Positions 1 to 10,822 of a DNA stretch of 10,822 bases are shown one piece after another. A program made the translations under genes and the position numbers. The stretch comes from Phycisphaeraceae bacterium. GTDB lineage: Bacteria > Planctomycetota > Phycisphaerae > Phycisphaerales > Zrk34. The first letter of the stretch is position 1. The number at the start of each line of letters is the position of its first letter. A model generated the notes under the pieces. The model was given only the letters and a program-made list of their open reading frames with translations. It had not been told where the DNA came from and made no database searches. Location of the stretch: the NCBI GenBank assembly GCA_028277685.1, contig JANQFT010000356.1, forward strand, positions 1-10,822, given 5' to 3'.

Positions 1-37
1 TGGCGGGGCGGCGCTCTGCCGGTTGAGCTACAGCCGC
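1..37 (-). tRNA. 5' portion (acceptor 5' strand, D-arm, start of anticodon stem) of a tRNA gene that continues beyond the window start; isotype undetermined
   Basis: Reverse complement of 1..37 reads GCGGCTG-TA-GCTC-AACCGGCA-GAGC-G-CCGCC..., a canonical acceptor/U8/D-stem-loop layout. The D-arm closely resembles the Ala tRNA at 3399..3470. The anticodon lies outside the window. Confidence 0.5.
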
Positions 38-46
38 AAGGAGAAA

Positions 47-86
47 GGCCGCCGCGCGACCTGTATCGCGCGGCGGCCGATCAGGC
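47..86 (-). terminator. Putative intrinsic terminator of the SPFH gene: perfect 12-bp GC-rich inverted repeat followed by a U-rich tract on the minus strand
   Basis: The + strand reads ggccgccgcgcg-acctgtat-cgcgcggcggcc, a 12-bp perfect stem with an 8-nt loop. On the minus strand the hairpin is followed by UUUCUCCUU. It sits immediately 3' of the SPFH stop. Confidence 0.45.
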
Positions 87-1235
87 ATCTTCATCTTCCA
101 TCATCGAGCGGAAACCGCAGCTGTTCTCATCGGTGGTCAGGCTTCGCACCTGCTCGACCAGGTCGCCCTTGCCGAGCACGAACGTTGCCTTCACGCCTTT
201 GAGTACTTCGCCGATTGCTTCCAGTTCGCGCATACGCGCGAGGGTGGGGTTGTCGGCCAGCAGCTTCGCGGTGTTCGCCTGGCTACGCGCCGCGGCGGTG
301 TCTTCACGACGTCGGATCAGGTTCGCTTCCGCCTGCTTCTGTGCGAGGATCACCTCGTTCAGAATCGACTTCATTTCACCGGGCAGGATGATGTCGCGCA
401 GGCCGATGCTTCGCACGACCACGCCGAACTCCGCCGCACGCGACGCCAGGGCGTTACGTACTTCGTTGCCCACTTCATCCTTATCCGACAGCAGCTTCTC
501 GAGCAGGCGGCCGCCCACCGCTTCACGTAGCACGAGCTGCGCTTCACGGTACAGGGCCTGGGCGTAATCGCTTACCACGGTGGCTGCCTTCACTGCATCG
601 ATTACCTGGTAAGTCACCACCAGGTTGACGCGAAGGGTTACTTTGTCGTTGGTCATGATTTCCTGACCCGCAACGTCGGCAACCTGTTCACGCAGATCGA
701 TGATCTTGCGCTCGATGCGGCCGGCACCGCGCCAGTAGACGTGCTTGCCTGCCTCCAGTTGCGCTACCTGTTTACCATCTCGATACAGCAGCACGGTTTC
801 ACCGGGCTCAATAGTCACGCCGTCGAACCAGTTCGATGCGCCCTGCATCGCGAGGATGGGCTCAATCTTGTTGTGTTCGAAGACGAAGTCGTTCACGTCG
901 TAGACTTCCACGTCGATCTTTGCTGGCGCTTTCCAGAACGCGTGGCGACCGGGACCAATCACCCAGCCGATACGGCCGTCCTTCCAGATAAGCGCTCGCT
1001 GGTTGTCGGTCAGATCAACCACTTCCAGGTGCGACGCGACCACGTGTTCGTCGACGAGTAAGTCGATGAGTGTATGCTCGAACTTCGTGTCCAACTTGTT
1101 GACGATGTGAACGCGATTGCGTCCGAACCAGTTGAACCATTGGCGGTACTTGCCCGGTTCGAGCAGACGGTGGAAATCGCCGTGGCGGAACCACAGGCCG
1201 ACTTCGTGTTTACGGATGCGAAGTGTTTTGAACAT
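81..1235 (-). CDS. SPFH/band-7 (stomatin/slipin-like) domain protein, ~385 aa, no obvious N-terminal transmembrane helix, N-terminal region with three copies of a ~45-aa beta-motif
   Basis: The ORF 81..1667 is open upstream, but only the ATG at 1233-1235 has a strong RBS (ccaaaAGGAGccaggacc-ATG). The upstream extension is low-complexity R/G/P-rich and overlaps a tRNA. The protein shows band-7 hallmarks: ...QEIMTNDKVTLRVNLVVTYQVID..., a coiled-coil C-terminal part (LAQKQAEANLIRRREDTAAARSQANTAKLLADNPTLARMRELEAIGEVLK), and three repeated ExG..W.R.G...PG.H.W motifs at the N-terminus. Confidence 0.8.
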   Translation of the reverse strand: MFKTLRIRKHEVGLWFRHGDFHRLLEPGKYRQWFNWFGRNRVHIVNKLDTKFEHTLIDLLVDEHVVASHLEVVDLTDNQRALIWKDGRIGWVIGPGRHAFWKAPAKIDVEVYDVNDFVFEHNKIEPILAMQGASNWFDGVTIEPGETVLLYRDGKQVAQLEAGKHVYWRGAGRIERKIIDLREQVADVAGQEIMTNDKVTLRVNLVVTYQVIDAVKAATVVSDYAQALYREAQLVLREAVGGRLLEKLLSDKDEVGNEVRNALASRAAEFGVVVRSIGLRDIILPGEMKSILNEVILAQKQAEANLIRRREDTAAARSQANTAKLLADNPTLARMRELEAIGEVLKGVKATFVLGKGDLVEQVRSLTTDENSCGFRSMMEDEDA

Positions 1236-1584
1236 GGTCCTGGCTCCTTTTGGGAGTGAGGTGTGTGAATCACGCGTGAACACCACGGCGTGTTGTGATA
1301 AGAAAAGCGGCGGGCCGGAGCGCAACGCATCACGCCCGTTGACCCCGTCATCAACAACGGCGTCGACTTGAGCGGCGGCCTGAAGCGTGCAGACGTCAAA
1401 CAGCCGCACGCCGCGAAGCGCCCTCCCCCCTGAGGGCAAAAACTTCGTCGGCGTGGGGCCGAATGACCGCCACGCGGTACCGCCGCGGTATCCGTCGAAC
1501 GACATGGCTGTGATGTCGGTGTTGCACAAGGCAACCGGTCGGGGCGATCGCGTGCATCCCGACCCGCCTGTTGGTGCCCTTAAC

Positions 1585-1635
1585 CGAGGGCCTTCGAGGG
1601 GACTTGAACCCCGAGGGTGGATAACCCTGCCATGG
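1585..1635 (-). other. tRNA-like remnant: T-arm-like hairpin (GGGG-TTCAAGT-CCCC) plus a short upstream hairpin; does not complete a cloverleaf
   Basis: The reverse complement contains ...AGGG-TTATCCA-CCCT-C-GGGG-TTCAAGT-CCCC-TCGAAGGC. No pairing 5' acceptor strand is present and there is no variable-region spacing. It abuts the 3' end of the tRNA at 1636..1708. Confidence 0.25.
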
Positions 1636-1708
1636 TGTGCGAGGCTGGATTCGAACCAGCTACCCATCGATCCTTAGTCGATTGCTCTACCTAATGAGCT
1701 ACTCGTGC
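1636..1708 (-). tRNA. tRNA, anticodon AAG (loop CTAAGGA), class-I (5-nt variable loop), A73; isotype uncertain (Leu-box anticodon on a non-Leu-type scaffold)
   Basis: Hand fold: acceptor GCACGAG/CTCGCAC with two adjacent A.C/C.A mismatches at 2:71 and 3:70. D-arm GCTC-ATTAGGTA-GAGC is perfect, anticodon stem ATCGA/TCGAT is perfect, and T-arm GCTGG-TTCGAAT-CCAGC is perfect. Confidence 0.6.
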
Positions 1709-1805
1709 ACATCACCTGAACCGGTCGAACCCGTGTCGCGGAATACATGTCGACAAAGTCTTGTGCACCGCCGGACGATACCGGTGACTGCTGAAGCAAA
1801 AGGAA

Positions 1806-1878
1806 CACGCGCGGCAGGAATCGAACCTGCATATGATGGTTTTGGAGGCCACCGCTCTTCCAATTGAGCTACGCACGT
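1806..1878 (-). tRNA. tRNA-Trp (anticodon CCA)
   Basis: Acceptor ACGTGCG/CGCGCGT (one G-U). D-arm GCTC-AATTGGAA-GAGC. Anticodon loop CTCCAAA is identical to the E. coli tRNA-Trp loop, with a C31:A39 mismatch as in known Trp tRNAs. T-arm GCAGG-TTCGATT-CCTGC, discriminator G. Confidence 0.85.
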
Positions 1879-1889
1879 ACTTCGGGCAA

Positions 1890-1962
1890 CTGCCCCGACT
1901 GGAATCGAACCTACACCCTTCGGGTTAAAAGCCCGATGCTCAGCCATTCGAACTCCAGGGTC
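1890..1962 (-). tRNA. tRNA-Lys(TTT)-like; anticodon arm, T-arm and 3' acceptor strand present, 5' third (acceptor 5' strand and D-arm) does not pair - probably degenerate/pseudo
   Basis: Anticodon stem TCGGG/CCCGA is perfect with loop CTTTTAA (TTT). T-arm GTAGG-TTCGATT-CCAGT has 2 G-U and 1 mismatch. The 3' acceptor is CGGGGCA+G, but the 5' region (…GACCCTGGAGTTCGAATGGCTGAGCA) has no matching TGCCCCG and no GCTC/GAGC D-stem. It lies 12 nt from tRNA-Trp. Confidence 0.45.
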
Positions 1963-2025
1963 GAAGTGTGTGACAAGGAAAGCATGGAATGGCATCCCAT
2001 CCCACGTTTCGAATTGTGCTTCTGG

Positions 2026-3258
2026 TCAATCCTTGTAGGGATCGAACTCATCCTCACCGGCCATGGCCACGCCGATGGGGGTGAGGGTGTGGATGATACG
2101 CACTGTTGAGCCGTGCGCTTCGAGTACTTCGGGCAGGCGCTTGTAGCAGTGGGGCGATTCATCGGTGCCCGCGCCCCGCAGTTCAACGCCGGCTTTGTGT
2201 ACCCAATCCATCATCATCTCACGCGAGATCTGGCCTTCGCTTTTGCGAACGAAGCCGCGCGCTTTCTTTGACCAGCGTTTCTTGCCAGCCGCTTGCGTAC
2301 GACTCATCACACGGCCGGCGCCGTGCACGGTCGATCGCAGGGCCATAACACTGTCTTCGCTGTCCATACCTTCAAGGATTACCGAAATATCGCCCATCGA
2401 ACCGCCTACGAATCCGCGTTGACCGGGAAACGCCGGCGTTGCGCCTTTGCGAACGATCCAGACATCGAGTTCGCAGTTGTCGATGAGGTGCGTTTCCTTC
2501 CACGCGTAGTTGTGATGGTTGTGTACCTCTTCAACAATGCGCGTTTCCAGCAGGCGGGCTACCTTCTGGCAAACCCAGTCGCGACCGGCATACGCATATT
2601 CCCCAGCCAGTTGCATGCACTGCAGATACTCCGCTCCGAGATTGGAATGCTCGTGGAACACAACCGGTTCAACGTGCATGCCGTCGGCACCACCACCTTT
2701 CTCGATAAAGAATGAAGCGATCTTGTGGCCGAGTCCGCGGCTGCCGAAGTGCACACCGCACCAGACGCGGTCTTCCTCATCAATGAACAGGTCAACGTAA
2801 TGGTTGCCCGAACCCACCGTGCCCAACTGTTCACGAGCCAGGTTTTTCAGGTTACGGTTCTTCGGACCTGTTATGCGCAACTGCTCAATCAGTTTCCAGG
2901 TTTCATCATCGAACAGTTCGTGGTCAACTTGCTCCTGGTTCTTTCGACCAACGCCGAACGAAATGCTCTTGAAGATCATGTTCATGATCTTGGCGATGTC
3001 GCGTCGCACGTCCTCGGCTTTGACGTCCAGTCGCACTGCTTTGTTGCCGCATGCGATGTCGTAACCAACACCCGAAGGTGAAACCATACCGTGGTAGGCC
3101 ACTACACCCCCGATCGGCATCGCGTAGCCCAGGTGGTGATCGCCCATCAGTGCGCCTGCCGCAGCATCCTTGTTTGCCAGACAAGTCTTGATCTGACGAA
3201 CTGCGCCTTCGTCCGGTTCACCCCAAACGGGTACGTTATCGATATTCGTGTAAGCCAT
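2026..3258 (-). CDS. rtcB: RtcB-family RNA 3'-phosphate/5'-OH ligase (RNA-splicing/repair ligase), 410 aa
   Basis: Full-length ORF with RBS GAGGTGcagc-ATG. RtcB hallmark motifs are present: ...GDHHLGYAMPIGGV..., ...DIACGN..., ...TVGSGNHYVDLF..., ...STVHGAGR..., with conserved His/Cys metal ligands and a length typical of RtcB. tRNA genes lie 52 nt upstream and 64 nt downstream on the same strand. Confidence 0.9.
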   Translation of the reverse strand: MAYTNIDNVPVWGEPDEGAVRQIKTCLANKDAAAGALMGDHHLGYAMPIGGVVAYHGMVSPSGVGYDIACGNKAVRLDVKAEDVRRDIAKIMNMIFKSISFGVGRKNQEQVDHELFDDETWKLIEQLRITGPKNRNLKNLAREQLGTVGSGNHYVDLFIDEEDRVWCGVHFGSRGLGHKIASFFIEKGGGADGMHVEPVVFHEHSNLGAEYLQCMQLAGEYAYAGRDWVCQKVARLLETRIVEEVHNHHNYAWKETHLIDNCELDVWIVRKGATPAFPGQRGFVGGSMGDISVILEGMDSEDSVMALRSTVHGAGRVMSRTQAAGKKRWSKKARGFVRKSEGQISREMMMDWVHKAGVELRGAGTDESPHCYKRLPEVLEAHGSTVRIIHTLTPIGVAMAGEDEFDPYKD

Positions 3259-3309
3259 GCTGCACCTCGCAAACTCATCATACGTGTGTTGTTGTTTCTA
3301 TTCTGTGAA

Positions 3310-3382
3310 AGCATTGTGTTGGAATCGAACCTGTGACCTTCTGGACCCAAACCGGACGCTCGGCCGATTGAGCTTCGCTCTG
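3310..3382 (-). pseudogene. tRNA-Pro(TGG)-like unit with intact 5' two-thirds but non-pairing 3' T-stem/acceptor strand (degenerate or chimeric tRNA)
   Basis: 5' acceptor CAGAGCG, A8A9, D-arm GCTC-AATCGGCC-GAGC perfect, anticodon stem TCCGG/CCAGA (1 mismatch), loop TTTGGGT (TGG). The T-loop TTCGATT is flanked by ACAGG on the 5' side and CCAAC on the 3' side, which do not pair. The 3' tail ACAATGC cannot pair with CAGAGCG. Confidence 0.4.
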
Positions 3383-3398
3383 GATAGAATGTCCGTAA

Positions 3399-3470
3399 TG
3401 GAGCCGCGGGGAGTTGAACCCCGATCATCCGGGTGCAAGCCGAGCGCTCTGCCAATTGAGCTACAGCCCC
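3399..3470 (-). tRNA. tRNA-Ala (anticodon TGC)
   Basis: Acceptor GGGGCTG/CGGCTCC with the diagnostic G3:U70 wobble. D-arm GCTC-AATTGGCA-GAGC. Anticodon loop CTTGCAC. T-arm CGGGG-TTCAACT-CCCCG, discriminator A. Confidence 0.85.
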
Positions 3471-3556
3471 CTGCTACGCCAAGGCTTCGCAGGGCTACGC
3501 GCACCTTCGCGTCATACGAAGTAGTGCGCGTTCTGCGAAGCTTCAGCGAAGCAGAA

Positions 3557-3630
3557 TGTCGCCGGAAGGATTCGAACCTTCACTGTCAGCCATCTCATGA
3601 CTGCGCCTCTGCCAGTTGGGCTACGACGAC
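3557..3630 (-). tRNA. tRNA, anticodon GAG (loop ATGAGAT), class-I, A73; member of a three-gene paralogous family; isotype uncertain
   Basis: Acceptor GTCGTCG/CGGCGAC (1 G-U). D-arm GCCC-AACTGGCAG-AGGC. Anticodon stem CAGTC/GGCTG. T-arm GAAGG-TTCGAAT-CCTTC is perfect. Variable loop is 5 nt. It lies 5 nt from the next tRNA. Confidence 0.6.
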
Positions 3631-3635
3631 GAGAA

Positions 3636-3709
3636 TAGCCCGGGTGGGAGTCGAACCCACAACTCACCAGTTTTAAGCCGGCGTCCTCTGCCAGTTGGGA
3701 TACCGAGCC
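3636..3709 (-). tRNA. tRNA, anticodon TAA (loop CTTAAAA), class-I, A73; paralog of 3557..3630 and 3712..3785; isotype uncertain
   Basis: Acceptor GGCTCGG/CCGGGCT (2 G-U). D-arm TCCC-AACTGGCAG-AGGA (T at position 10). Anticodon stem GCCGG/CTGGT. T-arm GTGGG-TTCGACT-CCCAC is perfect. 2-nt spacer to the next tRNA. Confidence 0.6.
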
Positions 3710-3711
3710 AA

Positions 3712-3785
3712 TACCGCCGACTGGATTCGAACCAGCACTGCACCGATTCTGAGTCGGTTCCCTCTGCCAGTTGGGGTACGACGGC
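3712..3785 (-). tRNA. tRNA, anticodon CAG (loop CTCAGAA), class-I, A73; paralog of the two preceding tRNAs; isotype uncertain
   Basis: Acceptor GCCGTCG/CGGCGGT (2 G-U). D-arm CCCC-AACTGGCAG-AGGG (C at position 10). Anticodon stem ACCGA/TCGGT is perfect. T-arm GCTGG-TTCGAAT-CCAGT. Variable loop GCAGT. Confidence 0.65.
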
Positions 3786-3867
3786 GTTAGTTATTTGGTG
3801 ATCTGGTGACTGGCGATTTCGTAATTTGATATTGCAGGCCGCACAAGACATTGCGCGAGGCGCGAAG

Positions 3868-3940
3868 CTGGGTTGGTGGGATTCGAACCTGCAAAAGCCG
3901 GATTCGTAATCCGGCGCCCGTCCAATTGAGCTTCGGGGTG
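3868..3940 (-). pseudogene. tRNA-Arg(ACG)-like unit; D-arm and anticodon arm perfect, but 3' T-stem half and acceptor 3' strand do not pair (degenerate or chimeric)
   Basis: D-arm GCTC-AATTGGAC-GGGC. Anticodon stem CCGGA/TCCGG is perfect with loop TTACGAA (ACG). The T-loop TTCGAAT has GCAGG on the 5' side but CCCAC on the 3' side. The 3' tail CAACCCA cannot pair with the 5' CACCCCG. A8A9 replaces U8. Confidence 0.4.
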
Positions 3941-3948
3941 GAGGCGAA

Positions 3949-4021
3949 AGCCGCAGGTCGGCGTCGAACCGACAACCTGCTGTTTACAAGACAGCTGCTT
4001 TGCCATTTGAGTTACTGCGGC
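3949..4021 (-). tRNA. tRNA-Thr (anticodon TGT)
   Basis: Acceptor GCCGCAG/CTGCGGC is perfect. Anticodon stem GCTGT/ACAGC is perfect with loop CTTGTAA. T-arm GTCGG-TTCGACG-CCGAC is perfect. The D-stem is weak. Confidence 0.8.
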
Positions 4022-4036
4022 AATGTGAAAACCAAA

Positions 4037-4110
4037 CGGCACCGACGGGATTCGAACCCGCGACCTCTTCCGTGACAGGGAAGCGCTCAGCCAAACCGAG
4101 CTCCGGCACC
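4037..4110 (-). tRNA. tRNA-Asp (anticodon GTC)
   Basis: Anticodon arm CTTCC-CTGTCAC-GGAAG. Variable loop plus T-arm AGGTC-GCGGG-TTCGAAT-CCCGT are nearly identical to E. coli tRNA-Asp. Acceptor GGTGCCG/CGGTGCC, discriminator G. Confidence 0.9.
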
Positions 4111-4235
4111 AGGCGAATCGCGGAGAGCAAACGCTCCACCGTCGGGCCACTGCGCTGTCGAACGCATGAAAAAATTTGACAGTGTCTATGCCACGATCCG
4201 TGTCGTCTACTTCTGCTGAAATGAATCAACAGCAA

Positions 4236-4306
4236 TTGACCCGGCAGGATTCGAACCTGCGTCCACCGATTATCAGTCGGCCGCTCATCCACTGAGCTAC
4301 GGGTCA
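4236..4306 (-). tRNA. tRNA-Ile (anticodon GAT)
   Basis: Acceptor TGACCCG/CGGGTCA is perfect. D-arm GCTC-AGTGGAT-GAGC. Anticodon stem GCCGA/TCGGT with loop CTGATAA, as in E. coli Ile. T-arm GCAGG-TTCGAAT-CCTGC, A73. Confidence 0.85.
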
Positions 4307-4400
4307 AGGACAGGCTCAGAGCGCACGCGCTCCAAGCCGTTGCATCCATCCGCTGTTCACTTGTCAAAGATCACTGCGCTGCAAGCAGCGCCCAAGGCAA

Positions 4401-4472
4401 TGGCTGGTCTCGGAGTTGAACCGAGGTCTCCCGCTTTTCAGACGAGCGCTATACCGACTGAGCCAACCAGCC
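4401..4472 (-). tRNA. tRNA-Phe (anticodon GAA)
   Basis: Acceptor GGCTGGT/ACCAGCC is perfect. D-arm GCTC-AGTCGGTA-TAGC, matching the Phe-type AGUCGGUAGAGC. Anticodon loop CTGAAAA. T-arm CTCGG-TTCAACT-CCGAG is perfect, A73. Confidence 0.85.
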
Positions 4473-4481
4473 GTATGTGAA

Positions 4482-4554
4482 TCGCCACGGTGGGATTCGA
4501 ACCCACGCACTCCTCTTTGTAAGAGAGGCGCTCTGGCCACTGAGCTACGCGGCA
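4482..4554 (-). tRNA. tRNA-Val (anticodon TAC)
   Basis: Anticodon arm CCTCT-CTTACAA-AGAGG is perfect and identical to the E. coli Val loop. T-arm GTGGG-TTCGAAT-CCCAC is perfect. D-arm GCTC-AGTGGCCA-GAGC, A73. 9 nt from tRNA-Phe. Confidence 0.85.
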
Positions 4555-4631
4555 AGATGTTCGCGCACCGATCGCGCATCCATGTCGGCCACGGCTTACA
4601 CCACCAACGGGTGTGCACGCTTCAGTTTCAA

Positions 4632-4704
4632 TGGCGGTGGCAGGATTTGAACCTGCGATCTCCGGGACATGCGCCCGGTGAGGATTCCGCTCCTCTACAC
4701 CGCA
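4632..4704 (-). tRNA. tRNA-Met (anticodon CAT) with initiator-like features (TTCAAAT T-loop, GGG/CCC anticodon stem, unpaired 1:72) but G at position 33
   Basis: Acceptor TGCGGTG/CACCGCC with a T1.C72 mismatch. D-arm GAGG-AGCGGAAT-CCTC. Anticodon arm CCGGG-CGCATGT-CCCGG. T-arm GCAGG-TTCAAAT-CCTGC, A73. Confidence 0.65.
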
Positions 4705-4705
4705 A

Positions 4706-4776
4706 TCGCGACGGTTGGATTTGAACCAACACCTTTCCCTTATGAGGGGAGTGCTCTGCCATTGAGCTACATCGCG
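4706..4776 (-). tRNA. tRNA-Met (anticodon CAT; loop CTCATAA), T-loop TTCAAAT; first gene of the array within this window, 1-nt spacer to next tRNA
   Basis: Acceptor CGCGATG/CGTCGCG (1 G-U). D-arm GCTC-AATGGCA-GAGC. Anticodon stem CTCCC/GGGAA (4 bp + mismatch) with loop CTCATAA. T-arm GTTGG-TTCAAAT-CCAAC is perfect, A73. Confidence 0.8.
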
Positions 4777-4922
4777 CGAGCTATTTACTTGTCAAAGGCC
4801 CAATCTTATGCGGCGAACGCGATATACATCCCACAGCAACACGAGGCCGAATATGCCTGAAAACACAGGCAAAACGCACACGATGCACCACCAGCAACAG
4901 GATGTCATTCGGTGTTGGCCGG

Positions 4923-5141
4923 TTACCCGATGGCTCGTGCGAGTTGCGCGGCTAAGTGCCGTTTATCGCATCTGCCCTGGAACCTGGCCCCGGTATCCTG
5001 TTGCCCGGCGGATATGCCGTTCGGATAACTCGGGAGCCCGCCGACCGCGCTCTTCAAAAGAGCAAACGCGGCAGACGCGCTGAACAGCATCACGCCGGAT
5101 AGGCGTTCAAGGCATGTCATGTTGTGCTGTGCAGCGTTCAT
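4923..5141 (-). CDS. Hypothetical small protein (72 aa) with a hydrophobic segment (VMLFSASAAFALL); doubtful
   Basis: The ORF track is the only support. The RBS is weak (GAGGcaggtaaccg-ATG) and no homology was recognised. It lies in an otherwise non-coding 900-bp gap. Confidence 0.2.
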   Translation of the reverse strand: MNAAQHNMTCLERLSGVMLFSASAAFALLKSAVGGLPSYPNGISAGQQDTGARFQGRCDKRHLAAQLARAIG

Positions 5142-5687
5142 CGGTTACCTGCCTCAAAGAAGAGGACGTTAAAGTATCAAGGTGGGAAATGTATCGGCGC
5201 AACAGGCGCGATGCAATAACTTTCTTATAGATTGAATCGAAAAAGTTCGTGCGTGCGTTCGTAAGTCTCAAACTTTGAGATTCTGGAGAATTGAGAATCG
5301 CACATGAGTGGTTGGCCCGAAGCATCCGTAAGTGTCAGCCGAAGTAAACGGGAACCGAATGAGCCAGACTTCGTAGTAAAGTGCCTGGTCTGATTGATGC
5401 CTGTCAACGCTGTTGCGGTGTTCCATCACTCCACAATCACATCCGCCGCCCCGTGTGAGCAGCTGCCACGTTCGTTGAACTCTCGGCGCCGATGGTCGAT
5501 GGGTTTTCGTCCTTTACCAGGTTTTGGGCAATGGCCATGACGACGCAGAATCGTATGGATCGCAGTCTTGTCGACAGGGCAGCCGAATTCGCCAGCGGTT
5601 CGTCGCGTGCCCCACAGTCAATTCTCCCCGGCTATGCGGAAGATCAATTCAATACGCTCGTGCGCTGATTCGCAATCGGTGAACCGG

Positions 5688-8126
5688 TTAATCCAAGCGA
5701 AGCACGATGGATGCATCCTGGCCGGGGACGAGGTTCACACGCTGGGTCTGCTTCTTACCGTTTGTGTGGACGGTGACTTCGTGTTCGCCGAAGAACGCGC
5801 GCACGGTGGTTTGACCTTGGGCATTGGTGGTGACTGTCTCATCCGTCCACCAGCGTTTGTAGACCAGGTCAATCCATGCCTGGCCGATCGGTTTGATGGT
5901 CCAGTCGCGCCGCCATAACGCCGCAGTGGGTGCCCAGTGTCGGCCCTCCCAGAAGCCCCACAACTGCACACCCGTCATGCGCGGGTGCGCGAACGCCAGA
6001 ATCACCGAATCGCGCAGCACATCCGCCTGGTATGCCAGCTGATCCGGGTCCCACGCATCGTCGATGCGTACGTCCAGTTCGGTCACCACGATGTCTTTGT
6101 CGTGGCGCGCGACCATGGCATCCCAGATGGCCCACGGCTCGACTTTACCATGCTTGTTCGGTTTGAGGCGATCGACAAAGCCGCTGTGGCCTTGCGTGCC
6201 CAGGCGGTCGATCGGCGCGTTGTTGGCCAACAGGTAGCCCACCCATCCGCCATGTTTCTCGCGGAGTTCAGCCGGCAGGCCGCCGCCGTGGTCGGCCCGC
6301 ACGTTCCATCGCGGTTCCAGGAACGTAAGCTTCACGTTGGGATCGGCCGCGCGGGCCAGGCGATACCATTCGACCATCTCCATCGGGCCGTACATGTCCA
6401 TGAAGTCGCGGTTGCCGCCGGTTTCGTTGGTGACATCCCAGTCGTCGATCAGGCCGTGGAACGTGGTGACGTAGTTGGTCACATGATCGCGCACGATCTG
6501 TTGCAGTTTGACCGGGTCGGTCTTGGCCAGTTTCTTGTATTCATGTGGGGTGTGGTAGATGCTCGGCCAGACGAGCACGTGGCCGCGCGTCTGCAGGCCG
6601 TGCTTGCGCGCCCATTCGAGCAGTTGCTTGGTGTTGGCCTGGCTGAAGGCGTTGGTCTGTCGGTGCTGCACCCACTTCAGTGAATTCTCCGGGCCGACGC
6701 CGTTGAAGTATTTGAGGATCGTTTCGCGATACTTTTTGCCATTTTCGCCCTGGTCGACCCAAACGGGGTTGGCCGTGGCCGTGCCGAACAGGAAGGCGTG
6801 GCGTTGCATGGCCACGTGCACTTTGGCGTTGGGTACGGATTGCTGATTGGCATCGACCACCTGCACGCGCAGATCACCTTTGCGGTACTTCTCGATGCGC
6901 TGCGCCGCTTCGGTGCGCCACGGTGCGTCAGCAGCGCGGCCGAGGTAACTCCAGTTCTTCTTGGGCAGGTGCGCCAGGTTCGACCCCTTGGGGAAGATCA
7001 TCCACGCCACACCGCCGATCTGCACATCCTGCGCCTTGTGGCCAAGCATCATCAGCAGTTCCAGCTTGCCCGGTGGGAAGTCCCACTTGCTGGGGGTGCG
7101 CGTCAGGATGAAGTAGCGCTGCCATTGTTCGGTCAACGCCTTGCGGTCGTGGTAGAAGGTAAGTTGCCGGTGCTTGGGGCCGTCGATCAGCGACTTGATG
7201 AACGGCTGCACCATCGCGCCCTGGCCGTCATCCACCTTCTGCGGCTTCTTCCTGCCCTTCGCCCAGAACGTGACCAGCACGGTGTCACCTTTGTAAATCG
7301 GTTCGCGATTGCGCTGGGCAAGATTGACATGCGCCGGATGCCGATGGCCGCCCGGCACGTGCACCTTGCGGGCATGCTTGAAGGGTTGACCTTCAACCGT
7401 GATCGCCTCGCCGGAGTTTCGCAGTTGCTTCATGGCCTCGGCTTCAGTCCCACCGACCACGAAGTAAGCCGGGCCGATCTTGGTGAATTCCTTCTTCAGG
7501 CTCGCGAAGTAGTCGTTAGCGGGGATGGTCTGCGGTTCGCGCTCGCCCAGGCGCATTTTCTCGAGCGTCGCTTTCTGCTCGGCGGTCAGTTCGCGCTCGG
7601 CGCTGACGGTGATGGTCATGTCCTTCAGGTCGAACGTACCGCTGGATTCCCAGAAGCCGACCATGAACTTCAGGGACGTAGCGCCCAGCGGCACATCCCA
7701 TTCCGCGGTGTACTGCTGCCAGTCGTCCGAAGGATGACAATGGATGACCGGGGGCCTGGCCTTGGGGTGGCTGGGGAAGACCGGTTCGATGCGGCTCATC
7801 TTCCAGCCGGCGTCGCCCTTCTTGAGATCCTTCACGCGCACCCACACGCTGAACTTGAGTTTCGACCACGTCGGCGCCAACGGAAGCGTGGAACCGATGA
7901 TCGAGTGGCCCTGTTTGGCTCGGGTGATGCGGAGGAAGGTCTGGTCGCCTTCGGTGATGACGTTGACCTGCTTGTGAAGCCATTGGGGCACCCCCCAGCC
8001 GCGCGGGTTCTTGAATTGCCCGGCGGTGAACTGGCCCTGCTTGAAGACGTTGGCGTTGTCGGCATGTAGCGATGTGCCCAGCATGAGCAGGGCAATACAG
8101 GCGATTAGCAGACGGTGGTAGGTCAT
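5688..8126 (-). CDS. Secreted glycoside hydrolase family 10 endo-1,4-beta-xylanase with N-terminal carbohydrate-binding-module-like region, 812 aa
   Basis: RBS cAGGAAGaacc-ATG. N-terminal signal peptide MTYHRLLIACIALLMLGTSLHA. The C-terminal catalytic domain carries GH10 signatures: GPENSLKW, GHVLVWPS, WDVTNE (acid/base Glu) and VTELDV (nucleophile Glu). The N-terminal ~180 aa beta-sandwich region resembles xylanase CBM4_9/CBM22-type modules. Confidence 0.85.
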   Translation of the reverse strand: MTYHRLLIACIALLMLGTSLHADNANVFKQGQFTAGQFKNPRGWGVPQWLHKQVNVITEGDQTFLRITRAKQGHSIIGSTLPLAPTWSKLKFSVWVRVKDLKKGDAGWKMSRIEPVFPSHPKARPPVIHCHPSDDWQQYTAEWDVPLGATSLKFMVGFWESSGTFDLKDMTITVSAERELTAEQKATLEKMRLGEREPQTIPANDYFASLKKEFTKIGPAYFVVGGTEAEAMKQLRNSGEAITVEGQPFKHARKVHVPGGHRHPAHVNLAQRNREPIYKGDTVLVTFWAKGRKKPQKVDDGQGAMVQPFIKSLIDGPKHRQLTFYHDRKALTEQWQRYFILTRTPSKWDFPPGKLELLMMLGHKAQDVQIGGVAWMIFPKGSNLAHLPKKNWSYLGRAADAPWRTEAAQRIEKYRKGDLRVQVVDANQQSVPNAKVHVAMQRHAFLFGTATANPVWVDQGENGKKYRETILKYFNGVGPENSLKWVQHRQTNAFSQANTKQLLEWARKHGLQTRGHVLVWPSIYHTPHEYKKLAKTDPVKLQQIVRDHVTNYVTTFHGLIDDWDVTNETGGNRDFMDMYGPMEMVEWYRLARAADPNVKLTFLEPRWNVRADHGGGLPAELREKHGGWVGYLLANNAPIDRLGTQGHSGFVDRLKPNKHGKVEPWAIWDAMVARHDKDIVVTELDVRIDDAWDPDQLAYQADVLRDSVILAFAHPRMTGVQLWGFWEGRHWAPTAALWRRDWTIKPIGQAWIDLVYKRWWTDETVTTNAQGQTTVRAFFGEHEVTVHTNGKKQTQRVNLVPGQDASIVLRLD

Positions 8127-8207
8127 GGTTCTTCCTGTCAGTCAAACGTTTCGTATCGAACATCCTTGCACGCGTGCCGAGCGCAGTCGGCGGCGTGTGA
8201 TTCATCT

Positions 8208-8588
8208 TCAGGTGCGGATAACGCCATCGCCATCCCGAAGGTCTTCTGATGACTGGTTGTCCTTCCACAGGAAGACCTGCCCTTTGATCAGACAGCATTG
8301 GCGGTCGACCGAAGCGATGCGTTGCATCTGCTGATCGCTGAGTGGCGGACTGAGCGCAGCTTCCATATTCGCCAGGTCATTCCGGGGTGTGGTGGAGAAT
8401 GGGATTGGCACCTGACCCCGCTGGATGGCCCACTTCACGCAGAGCGTGGTGGGGTGAAGATCGAGTTCCGCAGCGATCTCAATGAGCACCTGACGGTGAC
8501 CCGGCTGGGGAACATCAAAACTGTTCATCTCGACTGTCCAGTTACCCGGCAGGATGGCTCCAGTCATTTGGCTGGGGTGTGAAGACAT
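8208..8588 (-). pseudogene. C-terminal fragment (~100-125 aa) of an aldo/keto reductase (DkgA/YvgN-like); N-terminal two-thirds missing - gene remnant
   Basis: The translation ...RQVLIEIAAELDLHPTTLCVKWAIQRGQVPIPFSTTPRNDLANMEAALSPPLSDQQMQRIAS... aligns with the AKR C-terminus (…[54 protein letters not shown]…). The ORF is only 127-142 aa, versus ~275-320 aa for a full AKR. The space where the N-terminus should be is occupied by the divergently oriented araC-family gene. Confidence 0.5.
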
Positions 8589-8758
8589 CATGATCTCCGG
8601 CCGAGGCGACGAAGGGCAACGGGCAATGACAAACAACCGCCCCCTGAATGATCGATGATGGAGCCGTGGAACGGAATGACAGGAGTTGACGAGATAATAG
8701 CAATTCTTGACACTGTTTAAGCGACTTACTGACTCCGAAATCGACCCGTGAGTGCGAT

Positions 8759-9761: not shown

Positions 9762-10822
9762 CTAGGCTTCGTAAATCCGAATGTTGCTGAACAACACATC
9801 CGTACTGCCGTTGGCATCATCATCCGCCACGAAGACCAGGTTGCTCATGCTGCCGGTGTAGTATTGACCAATATTGATGCGGTAGCGGCGCACACCATCG
9901 GATGTCTGGTAAGCAGACTCACCAATCGATTGCCAACTGCCGGGCTTGGCGTCGCTGCCACCGAGATGCAACACTTTGGCTGGGCCGGTGGCGTAGTTGT
10001 CATCATTGTCCAGGCCGATGCCGATCAGTTCACCGATGTCGGTCGCGCTCAGATCAAACTCGATGATCGTGTTCGCCGTGATGGTGTAGTCGAACGCGGT
10101 CTTCTTCCAGGCATTGCCGGTCAAGTGAACCGTCTGGCTGTTGTCTTCGACCGTTGCGTCAGACGACTGGCCGTTCTGACCGTCCTGTTCACCCGAGTAA
10201 CCAACCAGGCTGTCATCGGTGAACACCAGTGGACCAGCCCCTTCGTGAACACTGACATTGCTGAACTTCACGTTCGCACTGCCATCGGCATCGTCGTCGG
10301 CCACGAAGACCAGATCGCTCATGCTACCGGTGAAGTATTGGCCCAACTGGATGACGTAATGACGCGTCCTTTCGGCACTGGTGTAACCGGATTCTTCGAT
10401 CGCCTGCCAACCCGTGGGCATGCCGTCGCTGCCGCCCAGGTGCAGCACCTTGGCCGGGCCGGTGGTGTAGCTGTCATCGTTGTCCAGGCCGATACCGATC
10501 GCTTCACCGATGTCGCTTGCGTTCAAGTCGAATTCAAGCACGGTCTTGCTGGTGACTTTGTAGTCGAAGGTCGTCTTCTTCCAGGCGTTGCCGGTCAGGT
10601 GGACGGTTGCCCCGCTGTCCTCGACGGTAACGCTGGTGGGCTTACCGTTCTGGCCGTCCTGCGTGGTGGTGTAGCTGCTGAAGGTGGTGCCTGTGAAGTC
10701 GATCTCCCTGTCAGCCGGCTCGTATACCTGGATGTTGCTGAACGATACATCCGCGCTGCCGTTGGCATCATCATCCGCCACGAAGACCAGGTTGCTCATG
10801 CTGCCGGTGTAGTACTGACCGA
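9762..10822 (-). CDS. C-terminal part of a large repeat protein built from ~159-aa tandem repeats (at least two full plus one partial copy in window); continues upstream beyond window end; function unknown (possible secreted beta-sandwich/lectin-like repeat protein)
   Basis: The frame stays open through 10822: the codons upstream of the ORF-track Met read ...GQYYTGS-MSNLVF..., matching the internal repeat junctions. Conserved blocks recur in each repeat: SNLVFVADDDANGS.DV.FSNI.VYE, TVHLTGNAWKKT.FDY, IGIGLDNDD.YTTGPAKVLHLGGSD, GQY(Y/F)TGSM. Stop at 9762. Confidence 0.7.
   Translation of the reverse strand, partial: GQYYTGSMSNLVFVADDDANGSADVSFSNIQVYEPADREIDFTGTTFSSYTTTQDGQNGKPTSVTVEDSGATVHLTGNAWKKTTFDYKVTSKTVLEFDLNASDIGEAIGIGLDNDDSYTTGPAKVLHLGGSDGMPTGWQAIEESGYTSAERTRHYVIQLGQYFTGSMSDLVFVADDDADGSANVKFSNVSVHEGAGPLVFTDDSLVGYSGEQDGQNGQSSDATVEDNSQTVHLTGNAWKKTAFDYTITANTIIEFDLSATDIGELIGIGLDNDDNYATGPAKVLHLGGSDAKPGSWQSIGESAYQTSDGVRRYRINIGQYYTGSMSNLVFVADDDANGSTDVLFSNIRIYEA
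9775..10822. repeat. Intragenic tandem DNA repeats, period 474 and 477 bp (three copies; copies 1 and 3 are the most similar)
   Basis: The motif catgctgccggtgtagta recurs at 9846, 10320 (as catgctaccggtgaagta) and 10797. The flanking ~90-nt blocks (gttgctgaac...catccgccacgaagaccaggttgctcatgctgccggtgtagta) recur at 9781-9863 and 10737-10814. Confidence 0.75.

Follow-up and report, generated by a model that had tools for sequence, protein, structure and literature searches.

The window analysed here, i.e. the whole stretch of 10,822 nucleotides (contig JANQFT010000356.1 of the Phycisphaeraceae metagenome-assembled genome (MAG) GCA_028277685.1), carries at positions 1-4776 a dense array of tRNA genes with embedded genes for the RNA ligase RtcB and an SPFH/Band-7 ('slipin') protein. 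tRNA genes were called with ARAGORN, with the Rfam model RF00005 at its gathering score and with a covariance model, R1, built in this analysis. ARAGORN detected 13 and RF00005 14 tRNAs, all on the minus strand between 1633 and 4776; the Rfam scores were 45-69 bits with a single unit at 31.9 bits. A permissive Rfam scan added a sub-threshold unit at 3875-3934 (24.1 bits). R1 additionally matched 3865-3939 (31.9 bits), 3304-3385 (26.5 bits), 1883-1965 (39.7 bits) and, in truncated form, 1-40. By alignment with orthologues these are a pseudogene of tRNA-Arg(ACG), a pseudogene of tRNA-Pro(UGG), a weak tRNA-Lys(UUU) and the 5' half of a tRNA-Gly(GCC). The total is 17 co-oriented tRNA-type units: 12 intact decoders, 3 degenerate units, one tRNA-like gene and the Gly-GCC gene, of which the contig contains only the 5' half. 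The initial annotation had given about 18 units in 4.8 kb, all on the minus strand; the orientation agrees with ARAGORN, Rfam and the orthologue alignment, and a half-tRNA-like minihelix at 1595-1632 would be the 18th unit.

The units are packed very closely. According to the Rfam coordinates the two Met genes are 1 nt apart, three Leu genes are separated by 2 and 5 nt and the other spacers measure 9-15 nt, in agreement with the shortest distances noted earlier. Even with the protein genes counted in, the density is about 2.9 tRNA genes per kb (14 Rfam-scored genes in 4.78 kb), and 14 tRNA genes per 4.8 kb are far beyond chance expectation. Repetition is limited to the Leu triplet, whose anticodons differ, and the array is non-periodic. 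RtcB and SPFH/Band_7 are the only protein genes that Pfam finds within it, as had been stated before. The intact decoder genes (Met, fMet-type, Val, Phe, Ile, Asp, Thr, three Leu, Ala and Trp) do not encode CCA, and the array of the window spans only about 10 amino acids. No rRNA gene was matched by Rfam in the window. The contig stops within the tRNA-Gly(GCC) gene, hence the census stops inside the array.

The first tRNA gene of the array is a tRNA-Met(CAU) of the elongator or Ile2 type (4706..4776, 1-72 paired, Rfam 69.2 bits), whose orthologues are 78-88% identical with compensatory changes in the stems. The initiator-type tRNA-Met(CAU) next to it (4631..4705, 45.1 bits) has a 1x72 mismatch and a GGG:CCC anticodon stem; it carries G33 in the window and U33 in four relatives. 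The genes for tRNA-Val(UAC) (4481..4555, 67.1 bits), tRNA-Phe(GAA) (4401..4472, 62.2 bits), tRNA-Ile(GAU) (4235..4307, 69.4 bits), tRNA-Asp(GUC) (4036..4111, 52.7 bits) and tRNA-Thr(UGU) (3949..4021, 52.4 bits) precede the Arg(ACG) pseudogene (3865..3940). Three short-arm (type I) tRNA-Leu genes with A73 follow, reading CAG (3712..3785, 48.8 bits), UAA (3635..3710, 45 bits) and GAG (3557..3630, 48.3 bits), then tRNA-Ala(UGC) (3399..3470, 60.9 bits) and the Pro(UGG) pseudogene (3305..3385), which is collinear with a Pro(TGG) gene of a related contig, L003 (labels L001-L107 denote the contigs compared with the window). On the other side of rtcB (2026..3258) lie the degenerate tRNA-Lys(UUU) (1889..1963), tRNA-Trp(CCA) (1805..1879, 60.2 bits) and the tRNA-like gene (1633..1708), followed by a conserved non-coding leader (1236..1632) and the SPFH gene (81..1235). 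All 12 decoders were called by ARAGORN. A terminator-like hairpin (47..78; 14-bp stem with 12 GC pairs, then a T-rich tail) is located 3' of the SPFH gene. The partial tRNA reported at the window start (1..37) turned out to be the 5' half of tRNA-Gly(GCC), 92% identical to L004 13549-13585 and 86% identical to L003 13769-13805, which is likewise Gly(GCC).

The degenerate units that had been noted before were confirmed by the alignment. In the Arg(ACG) pseudogene the 5' two-thirds are conserved and the 3' strands of the T stem and the acceptor stem are gone; the Pro(UGG) pseudogene has lost the same two strands. Both lesions sit exactly at sites where the window lacks neighbour genes that the relatives have. 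We considered the 3' parts as chimeras formed by T-loop recombination with another tRNA, and no donor was found. The Lys(UUU) unit, with weakened T, D and acceptor stems, is the one scored at 31.9 bits by Rfam; ARAGORN reports it at a lowered threshold only, and it is probably a pseudogene. Compared to L004 the window lacks the Glu/Val pair at the head, Gln/Arg(CCG), an HNH-His-Pro-Gly block and Lys(CUU)/Arg(UCU)/Asn. As judged from these comparisons, the window copy is a reduced, partly pseudogenised form of a 30-35-gene array, and since about half of the ancestral genes have been lost, it is likely decaying or only partly functional. Orthologues of the intact genes are 73-89% identical and their stem changes are mostly compensatory or wobble, a pattern indicating that the remaining tRNA genes are still under cloverleaf constraint.

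RtcB homologues with 77-82% identity are encoded on five array-bearing contigs, L003, L004, L105, L106 and L107 (36, 30, 21, 32 and 22 tRNAs, respectively), which probably derive from Planctomycetota. They share one gene order: a small open reading frame (ORF), (Glu, Val), Met, fMet-type Met, Val, Phe, Ile, Asp, Thr, Arg, Gln, Arg, several Leu, Ala, Pro, (HNH), His, Pro, Gly, RtcB, Lys, Lys, Thr, Arg, Asn, Trp, the tRNA-like gene, Band-7, Gly, Cys, Ser, Tyr, Gln and finally a small MerR/excisionase-like gene. Synteny with relatives, which the initial annotation had proposed to test, was found in five contigs; the window is collinear with L004, with 74% identity over 960 nt in the first block and 72% from Trp to the SPFH end. 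The array of L107 is broken by opposite-strand genes at 5878-8714 and 12047-12784 (Methyltransf_21, a 472-aa and a 245-aa protein), an interruption which indicates that these arrays are highly plastic; the Band-7 gene of L107 looks truncated. The six contigs have six different flanks: a xylanase gene in the window and GH31/SSF, sigma-FecR/GH2, a type II secretion secretin, MoxR-VWA and SASA in the relatives. A further contig, L001, encodes an RtcB with 81% identity to that of the window and has no tRNAs.

SPFH homologues were found in 17 GTDB genomes, all labelled Planctomycetota apart from one of Verrucomicrobiota; 2 of the 17 are array-linked, as are about 9 of 80 metagenomic SPFH loci. Furthermore, the Band-7 gene with its tRNA-like gene is present without an array in the complete chromosomes L008 and L009. 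A distant array lies on the 94-kb viral contig L103 (IMG/VR UViG_3300007072_000340) at 4900-18318, comprising 36 tRNAs together with an HNH, an SPFH and the tRNA-like gene; a different sample yielded the identical fragment L104. The L103 array is situated upstream of a GpA-type large terminase gene at a distance of 5.5 kb. An HNH homing-endonuclease gene is common to seven arrays. The excisionase-like protein (MerR/HTH_17, 65-72 aa) closes the array at L003 14614-14811, L004 14108-14314 and L105 6410-6628; the two that were scanned, from L003 and L004, matched the PADLOC model 'mad1' with an E-value of about 1e-10. In the window this end of the array falls beyond the start. The absence of rRNA, the variable flanks, the array-less L001, the divergent second tRNA-Glu(CUC) gene outside the array of L003 and the terminase next to the L103 array bear out the proposal that this is an accessory-type array and not an rrn/tRNA operon. 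Horizontal acquisition or mobility, proposed as well, is supported by the differing flanks and the phage-borne relative, but not by the host-like composition of the locus and the absence of an integrase from the window.

The RtcB of the window (410 aa; PF01139, 228 bits) keeps the motifs GYDIxCG, GSGNH, GSRGLGH and HGAGR in an alignment to Pyrococcus horikoshii RtcB (4dwr/1uc2). The metal-binding and His-GMP motifs are conserved, and the protein is apparently an active 3'-phosphate/5'-OH RNA ligase. The SPFH gene (384 aa; PF01145, 104 bits) has the orientation of rtcB and follows it at a distance of 790 nt, a pairing that is also present in L003, L004 and L106. Its ribosome binding site (RBS) and start codon at 1235 are conserved in relatives. 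The longer ORF 81-1667, starting from an upstream ATG at 1667, was rejected as the SPFH gene with regard to this conservation and to tblastn matches that begin at residue 1. No transmembrane segment was detected (hydropathy maximum 1.37), and the protein is predicted to be soluble. Its AlphaFold model (pLDDT 82.7) displays three N-terminal beta repeats, the SPFH domain and a long helix. Foldseek matched the model to stomatin and HflK/C, with E-values down to 1e-15 for stomatin, and to the major vault protein (MVP) over 414-476 columns with a TMq of 0.38-0.52 and 11-13% identity. Stomatin and HflK/C outscore MVP, but only the MVP matches span most of the query. The likeness to MVP and SPFH cages (stomatin, HflK/C, prohibitin) consists in the predicted N-terminal beta repeats, the SPFH domain and the long helix; the window protein differs by having only three repeats, 384 aa and no membrane anchor, MVP being characterised by many repeats, a shoulder, a cap helix and a cap ring. 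We regard this as a resemblance in predicted fold rather than as membership. No relevant homologue was found in 50,697 GenBank phage records, with one partial match in a 1.4-kb Salmonella phage record.

Among the loci with at least 2.5 kb downstream of SPFH, 10 of 49 encode RtcA and/or RtcB, in 8 cases directly downstream and without an array. The array-less order is SPFH-RtcA-RtcB in L080, L093, L077, L081, L079 and L084 and SPFH-RtcB-RtcA in L043, L051 and L066; the tRNA-like gene, SPFH, RtcA (RNA 3'-phosphate cyclase) and RtcB form an apparent operon there. The RtcB proteins of these loci have 406 or about 500 aa and 23-38% identity to that of the window. In Pseudomonas aeruginosa, an SPFH gene is situated within the rtc locus, too (PMC13086221).

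The tRNA-like gene at 1633..1708, called tRNA-Leu(AAG) by ARAGORN, is the top R1 match of the window (74.7 bits). It is 76 nt long, of type I without a long variable arm, mismatched at the top of the acceptor stem and, unlike the CCA-less array genes, encodes its 3' CACCA. It is located 398 nt upstream of the SPFH start. Of 81 loci, 60 have a homologue that ARAGORN calls at a distance of 250-800 nt upstream of the SPFH gene, and R1 detects it in most of the others. Among 60 distinct copies, 90.7% of the cells are paired with 324 double changes, a value that none of 500 shuffles reaches. The D and T arms show next to no variation, and the anticodon stem displays free covariation; the acceptor pairs 1-72 and 2-71 are open in 35 and 30 of the 60 copies, respectively. 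The 'anticodons' of 63 ARAGORN-called copies are of 30 different kinds; of 57 loops, 37 have U33 and 11 have A34, and six loops do not have 7 nt. By this variation the anticodon is to be regarded as unconstrained, and unit 1633..1708 is probably not a decoder tRNA. A repair system of RtcB, Band-7 and a 'b7a-tRNA' was predicted by Burroughs and Aravind in 2016, according to the account in bioRxiv 10.1101/312249. Together with RtcB and Band-7, unit 1633..1708 constitutes this predicted RtcB/Band-7/b7a-tRNA module, an assignment made by the description in that account. Because they form such a module with the b7a-tRNA, rtcB and the SPFH gene are not mere interruptions of the array. Rfam holds no separate family for b7a-tRNA.

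The leader between the b7a-tRNA and the SPFH start (397 nt) is as conserved as coding DNA, with 72-73% identity to L004 and L023. Its minihelix at 1595-1632 consists of a hairpin and a T arm of the form GGGG-TTCAAGT-CCCC. In other clades, a 5-bp hairpin with a 7-nt anticodon-loop-like loop (CUGAUAA, CUGCAAA, CUGUGAA, CCCAUAA) takes the place of the minihelix just 3' of the b7a-tRNA, often with ACCA next to it (L015, L016, L018-L021, L024, L033, L037, L039, L044, L053, L056). A second motif, at 1486-1523, reads AACACCG...GGATACCG in the window and rACAnC...GCCnTGCAG...GGATACCG in its general form; a simple pattern of it matches 44 of 82 leaders, the background frequency being 0.08 per kb. RNAalifold revealed no covarying helix around this motif. 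It was rejected as a small ORF with regard to 1-nt indels separating the conserved blocks, and as a sigma-54 site by its spacing (judged by eye). A sigma-70 consensus scan of 1-5800 found no promoter. At permissive E-values neither the leader nor the degenerate units matched an Rfam family, and YrlA, GOLLD and ROOL were not found; at 14 related loci the only YrlA hits fell on tRNA genes, with 24-27 bits compared to the gathering score of 69.

Long tRNA arrays (L-arrays) are known from Planctomycetes, are spread by horizontal gene transfer, linked to HNH and rtcB and carried by phages and plasmids, and show frequent indels (Santamaria-Gomez et al. 2021, PMC8421152). The window agrees with them in its same-strand, close, non-periodic run of tRNA genes and in the patchy, transfer- and phage-linked distribution of its relatives. 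Altogether it fits an accessory L-array reduced by deletions. In Anabaena PCC 7120 the trn L-array, rtcB, an HNH gene (all8564) and the alr0739-alr0740 pair, encoding a hypothetical protein and a slipin, are repressed by TrcR and induced by translation inhibitors, chloramphenicol acting on all of them (PMC10272220). In a trcR mutant rtcB is derepressed 77-fold, all8564 17-fold, alr0739 71-fold and alr0740 42-fold; in electrophoretic mobility shift assays TrcR shifted all tested promoter fragments, including that of alr0739, with the exception of all5040 (PMC10272220). The likeness to the PCC 7120 operon comprises dozens of co-oriented, tightly spaced, non-periodic and, here, probably supernumerary tRNA genes with some pseudogenes, a patchy distribution with frequent indels, linked HNH and rtcB genes and a slipin in the regulon. 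With the slipins likened by protein class, the Anabaena regulon would be independent support for a functional link between array, rtcB and slipin. The two loci differ in that rtcB and the slipin/Band-7 gene are embedded here but dispersed in Anabaena, and in the planctomycete-like host, the mostly short-arm Leu tRNAs and the cut to 12 intact decoders. Neither a ribbon-helix-helix TrcR homologue nor TrcR-type direct repeats were identified here.

tRNA array units, defined by a density of at least 2 tRNA genes per kb and a minimum of 20 such genes (Tran et al. 2016, PMC4758250), have been described in Acidithiobacillus, Mycobacterium and mycobacteriophages (PMC4758250, PMC5966550) and share the density, the association with mobile elements or phages and probably the redundancy with the host set. 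Up to the end of the contig, 13-14 scored genes were counted in the window (the collinear relatives have 21-36), and no genes of integrative and conjugative elements or plasmids were seen. As far as the account cited above describes it, the Burroughs and Aravind system resembles our locus in that RtcB is encoded beside Band-7 and that a tRNA-like gene immediately precedes the latter; our locus differs in that the genes of a tRNA array are interspersed with those of the module, and in the conserved leader of about 400 nt 3' of the b7a-tRNA. The locus is thus an undescribed member of two overlapping kinds, the known L-arrays and the predicted RtcB/Band-7/b7a-tRNA system. Phage tRNA clusters, among them those of T5 and the mycobacteriophages, are a further kind to be compared. 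Clusters such as that of T4 with segB (PMC8421152) likewise carry embedded HNH/Seg endonucleases, and the relative L103 is phage-borne; the window differs by the absence of HNH and phage genes and by its Band-7 module. The Salmonella rsr-yrlBA-rtcBA locus, encoding a Ro60 homologue and Y RNAs with a tRNA-like domain (PMC7790460), is likewise an RNA-repair ligase operon that includes a non-coding RNA mimicking tRNA and a protein which may serve as a ring or scaffold. Here, however, there is no Rsr/TROVE protein, no RtcR and no YrlA match at the Rfam threshold, and the RNA is a full cloverleaf.

We consider it probable that the locus is a reduced accessory L-array which circulates in Planctomycetota-like bacteria and at least one phage, is built around an RtcB-centred RNA-repair module and serves in back-up and repair. 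The cluster would be switched on when translation is damaged, be it by translation inhibitors or by anticodon nucleases and other ribotoxins used in conflicts between phage and host or between bacteria. From the array, tRNAs of divergent sequence could then be supplied as a second set; after processing by RNase P and RNase Z and the addition of CCA by the CCA-adding enzyme, they would replace or buffer cleaved host tRNAs. RtcB would reseal tRNAs broken to 2',3'-cyclic-phosphate and 5'-OH ends, and the Band-7 protein, which probably oligomerises into a ring or cage as other SPFH proteins do, may be a scaffold, cofactor or decoy in repair together with the b7a-tRNA. A phage-borne array would act as counter-defence. 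The locus physically joins a spare tRNA array, RtcB, HNH (in relatives) and a slipin/Band-7 protein, i.e. components co-regulated in Anabaena under translational stress, and this physical joining supports one functional unit for surviving attacks on tRNAs.

Several points speak against this interpretation. The contrast in GC and k-mer composition between array and flank that the initial annotation had asked after is absent, with no discontinuity in GC (0.58 vs 0.59), GC3 or tetranucleotides, and the window contains no integrase or phage gene. Accessory status was judged on an isolated 10.8-kb MAG contig plus the contigs of relatives, and for this lineage the mechanism is argued by analogy. With missing isoacceptors, three degenerate units and the G33 initiator, the set may be non-functional. 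Neither the SPFH protein nor RtcB matched a PADLOC model. Moreover, since RtcA or RtcB is near only about 20% of the flanked loci, Band-7 may have a role beyond RtcB-dependent repair.

The locus might instead be a phage-derived cassette in decay, counter-defence cargo whose spare tRNAs and ligase overcome the anticodon nucleases of the host and that was left by a defective prophage and is of no present benefit to the host. The terminase next to a related array in the 94-kb viral contig, the HNH homing endonucleases within several arrays, the excisionase-like gene closing three of them and the state of the window copy itself (two clear pseudogenes, one weak unit, several deletions) would fit such an origin. 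But no phage structural gene or integrase was found in the window or within +/-10 kb of the five related arrays, the composition is host-like, the surviving tRNAs are under cloverleaf constraint and the Band-7/b7a module is found widely at ordinary chromosomal loci, for example in L008 and L009; we therefore regard this explanation as unlikely. A decoy or sponge, in which the array tRNAs and the b7a-tRNA mainly absorb tRNA-targeting nucleases or signal damage instead of decoding, is suggested by the unconstrained anticodon and often open acceptor top of the b7a-tRNA and by non-U33 loops in several array tRNAs of this clade; the idea has been raised for the Anabaena operonic tRNAs (PMC8421152) and for YrlA (PMC7790460). 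Proper anticodon loops in about 87% of the array tRNAs, coverage of all 20 amino acids by the full-size arrays of relatives and the aminoacylation of 23 of 26 Anabaena operonic tRNAs in vivo (PMC8421152) make it quite improbable as the main function.

Host-like composition and a gene order recurring in several related MAGs would also be expected of an ordinary, vertically inherited housekeeping tRNA operon. This is, however, very hard to reconcile with the absence of an rRNA gene, flanks that differ in every genome, a tRNA content varying from 13 to 36, an RtcB orthologue without array in L001, the presence of pseudogenes and the coverage of about 10 amino acids by the window copy. Outside the arrays, moreover, L003 has a divergent duplicate Glu(CUC), 62% identical to the array gene of the same anticodon, and L006 has a tRNA-Leu(CAG) of 85 nt compared to the mostly short-arm array tRNA-Leu. 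An assembly artefact, i.e. a chimeric or collapsed MAG contig joining tRNA-rich fragments, might be suspected in a short metagenomic contig ending inside a tRNA gene; with about 5 kb collinear, including spacers and leader, with five independent assemblies (ENA, NCBI, Logan) there is next to no room for it. We thus retain the reduced L-array with its repair module. A more far-reaching version of it is tentative and in our opinion doubtful: the b7a-tRNA would form the 5' part of a longer conserved RNA (about 400-500 nt: cloverleaf, half-tRNA minihelix or anticodon-arm-like hairpin, invariant GGAUACCG). Together with a soluble, vault-like cage of SPFH protein this RNA would constitute a ribonucleoprotein for sensing or handling tRNA damage, and the L-arrays of Planctomycetota and their phages would repeatedly assemble around this module and bear nuclease-evading variants such as short-arm tRNA-Leu and non-U33 loops.

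The comparison has brought together about 80 copies of the b7a-tRNA, a still-unvalidated RNA; they covary strongly, and their anticodon is free. It also draws attention to the conserved leader RNA and the short-arm tRNA-Leu family. For annotation it implies that calls of the 'tRNA-Leu(AAG)' type upstream of slipin genes are probably not decoders.

The long variable arm is missing from 27 of 30 array tRNA-Leu genes (73-78 nt; L003, L004, L007, L022, L103 and others), which keep the Leu-type 3-bp D stem; the Ser and Tyr genes of the same arrays keep their long arms. Because leucylation in E. coli needs A73 and not the long arm (PMC9976931), the short-arm tRNA-Leu may, by analogy, still be charged. 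C33 replaces U33 in the Glu-UUC, Gly-GCC, Val-GAC and His-GUG tRNAs of the arrays L003, L004 and L007. As orthologues in different genomes share it (Glu loop CCUUCAA), C33 seems to be maintained and not the result of random decay.

Between the Phe and Ile genes of the window lies a conserved TTTGACAAGTGAACAGC element (4352..4368, minus strand), preceded by a GC hairpin (4376-4391); a related copy (4780-4796) is located before the first Met gene. The element, TTTGACAAGT...GATG flanked by GC hairpins, occupies the Phe/Ile junction in 6 of 6 arrays of the clade with the consensus TTTGACAAGTrAAgAGCrGATkGATG; copies in the relatives are at L003 7915, L004 7025 and 7455, L105 1390, L106 7314 and L107 5510. 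Possibly, it is an internal terminator/promoter junction, a processing site or an operator.

The array is headed by a small ORF (4923..5141, minus strand) without a Pfam match, whose RBS and first ~22 codons are kept in L003 (~6940-7100) and L004 (6581-6802). The conserved start is MNA.Q...ER.S..LLF, and the conserved block terminates in a further GGATACC copy. In the relatives tRNA-Glu and tRNA-Val come after this ORF; both are gone in the window. The ordinary neighbouring genes named in the initial annotation were recovered by Pfam in the right flank, which comprises a GH10 xylanase, an AraC-type regulator and an ORF without assigned family. The xylanase (5688-8126, 812 aa) has a large N-terminal half without assignment and a CarboxypepD_reg-like C-terminal domain, and the unassigned ORF (9762-10799, 345 aa) gave a sub-threshold LptD_N-like match only.

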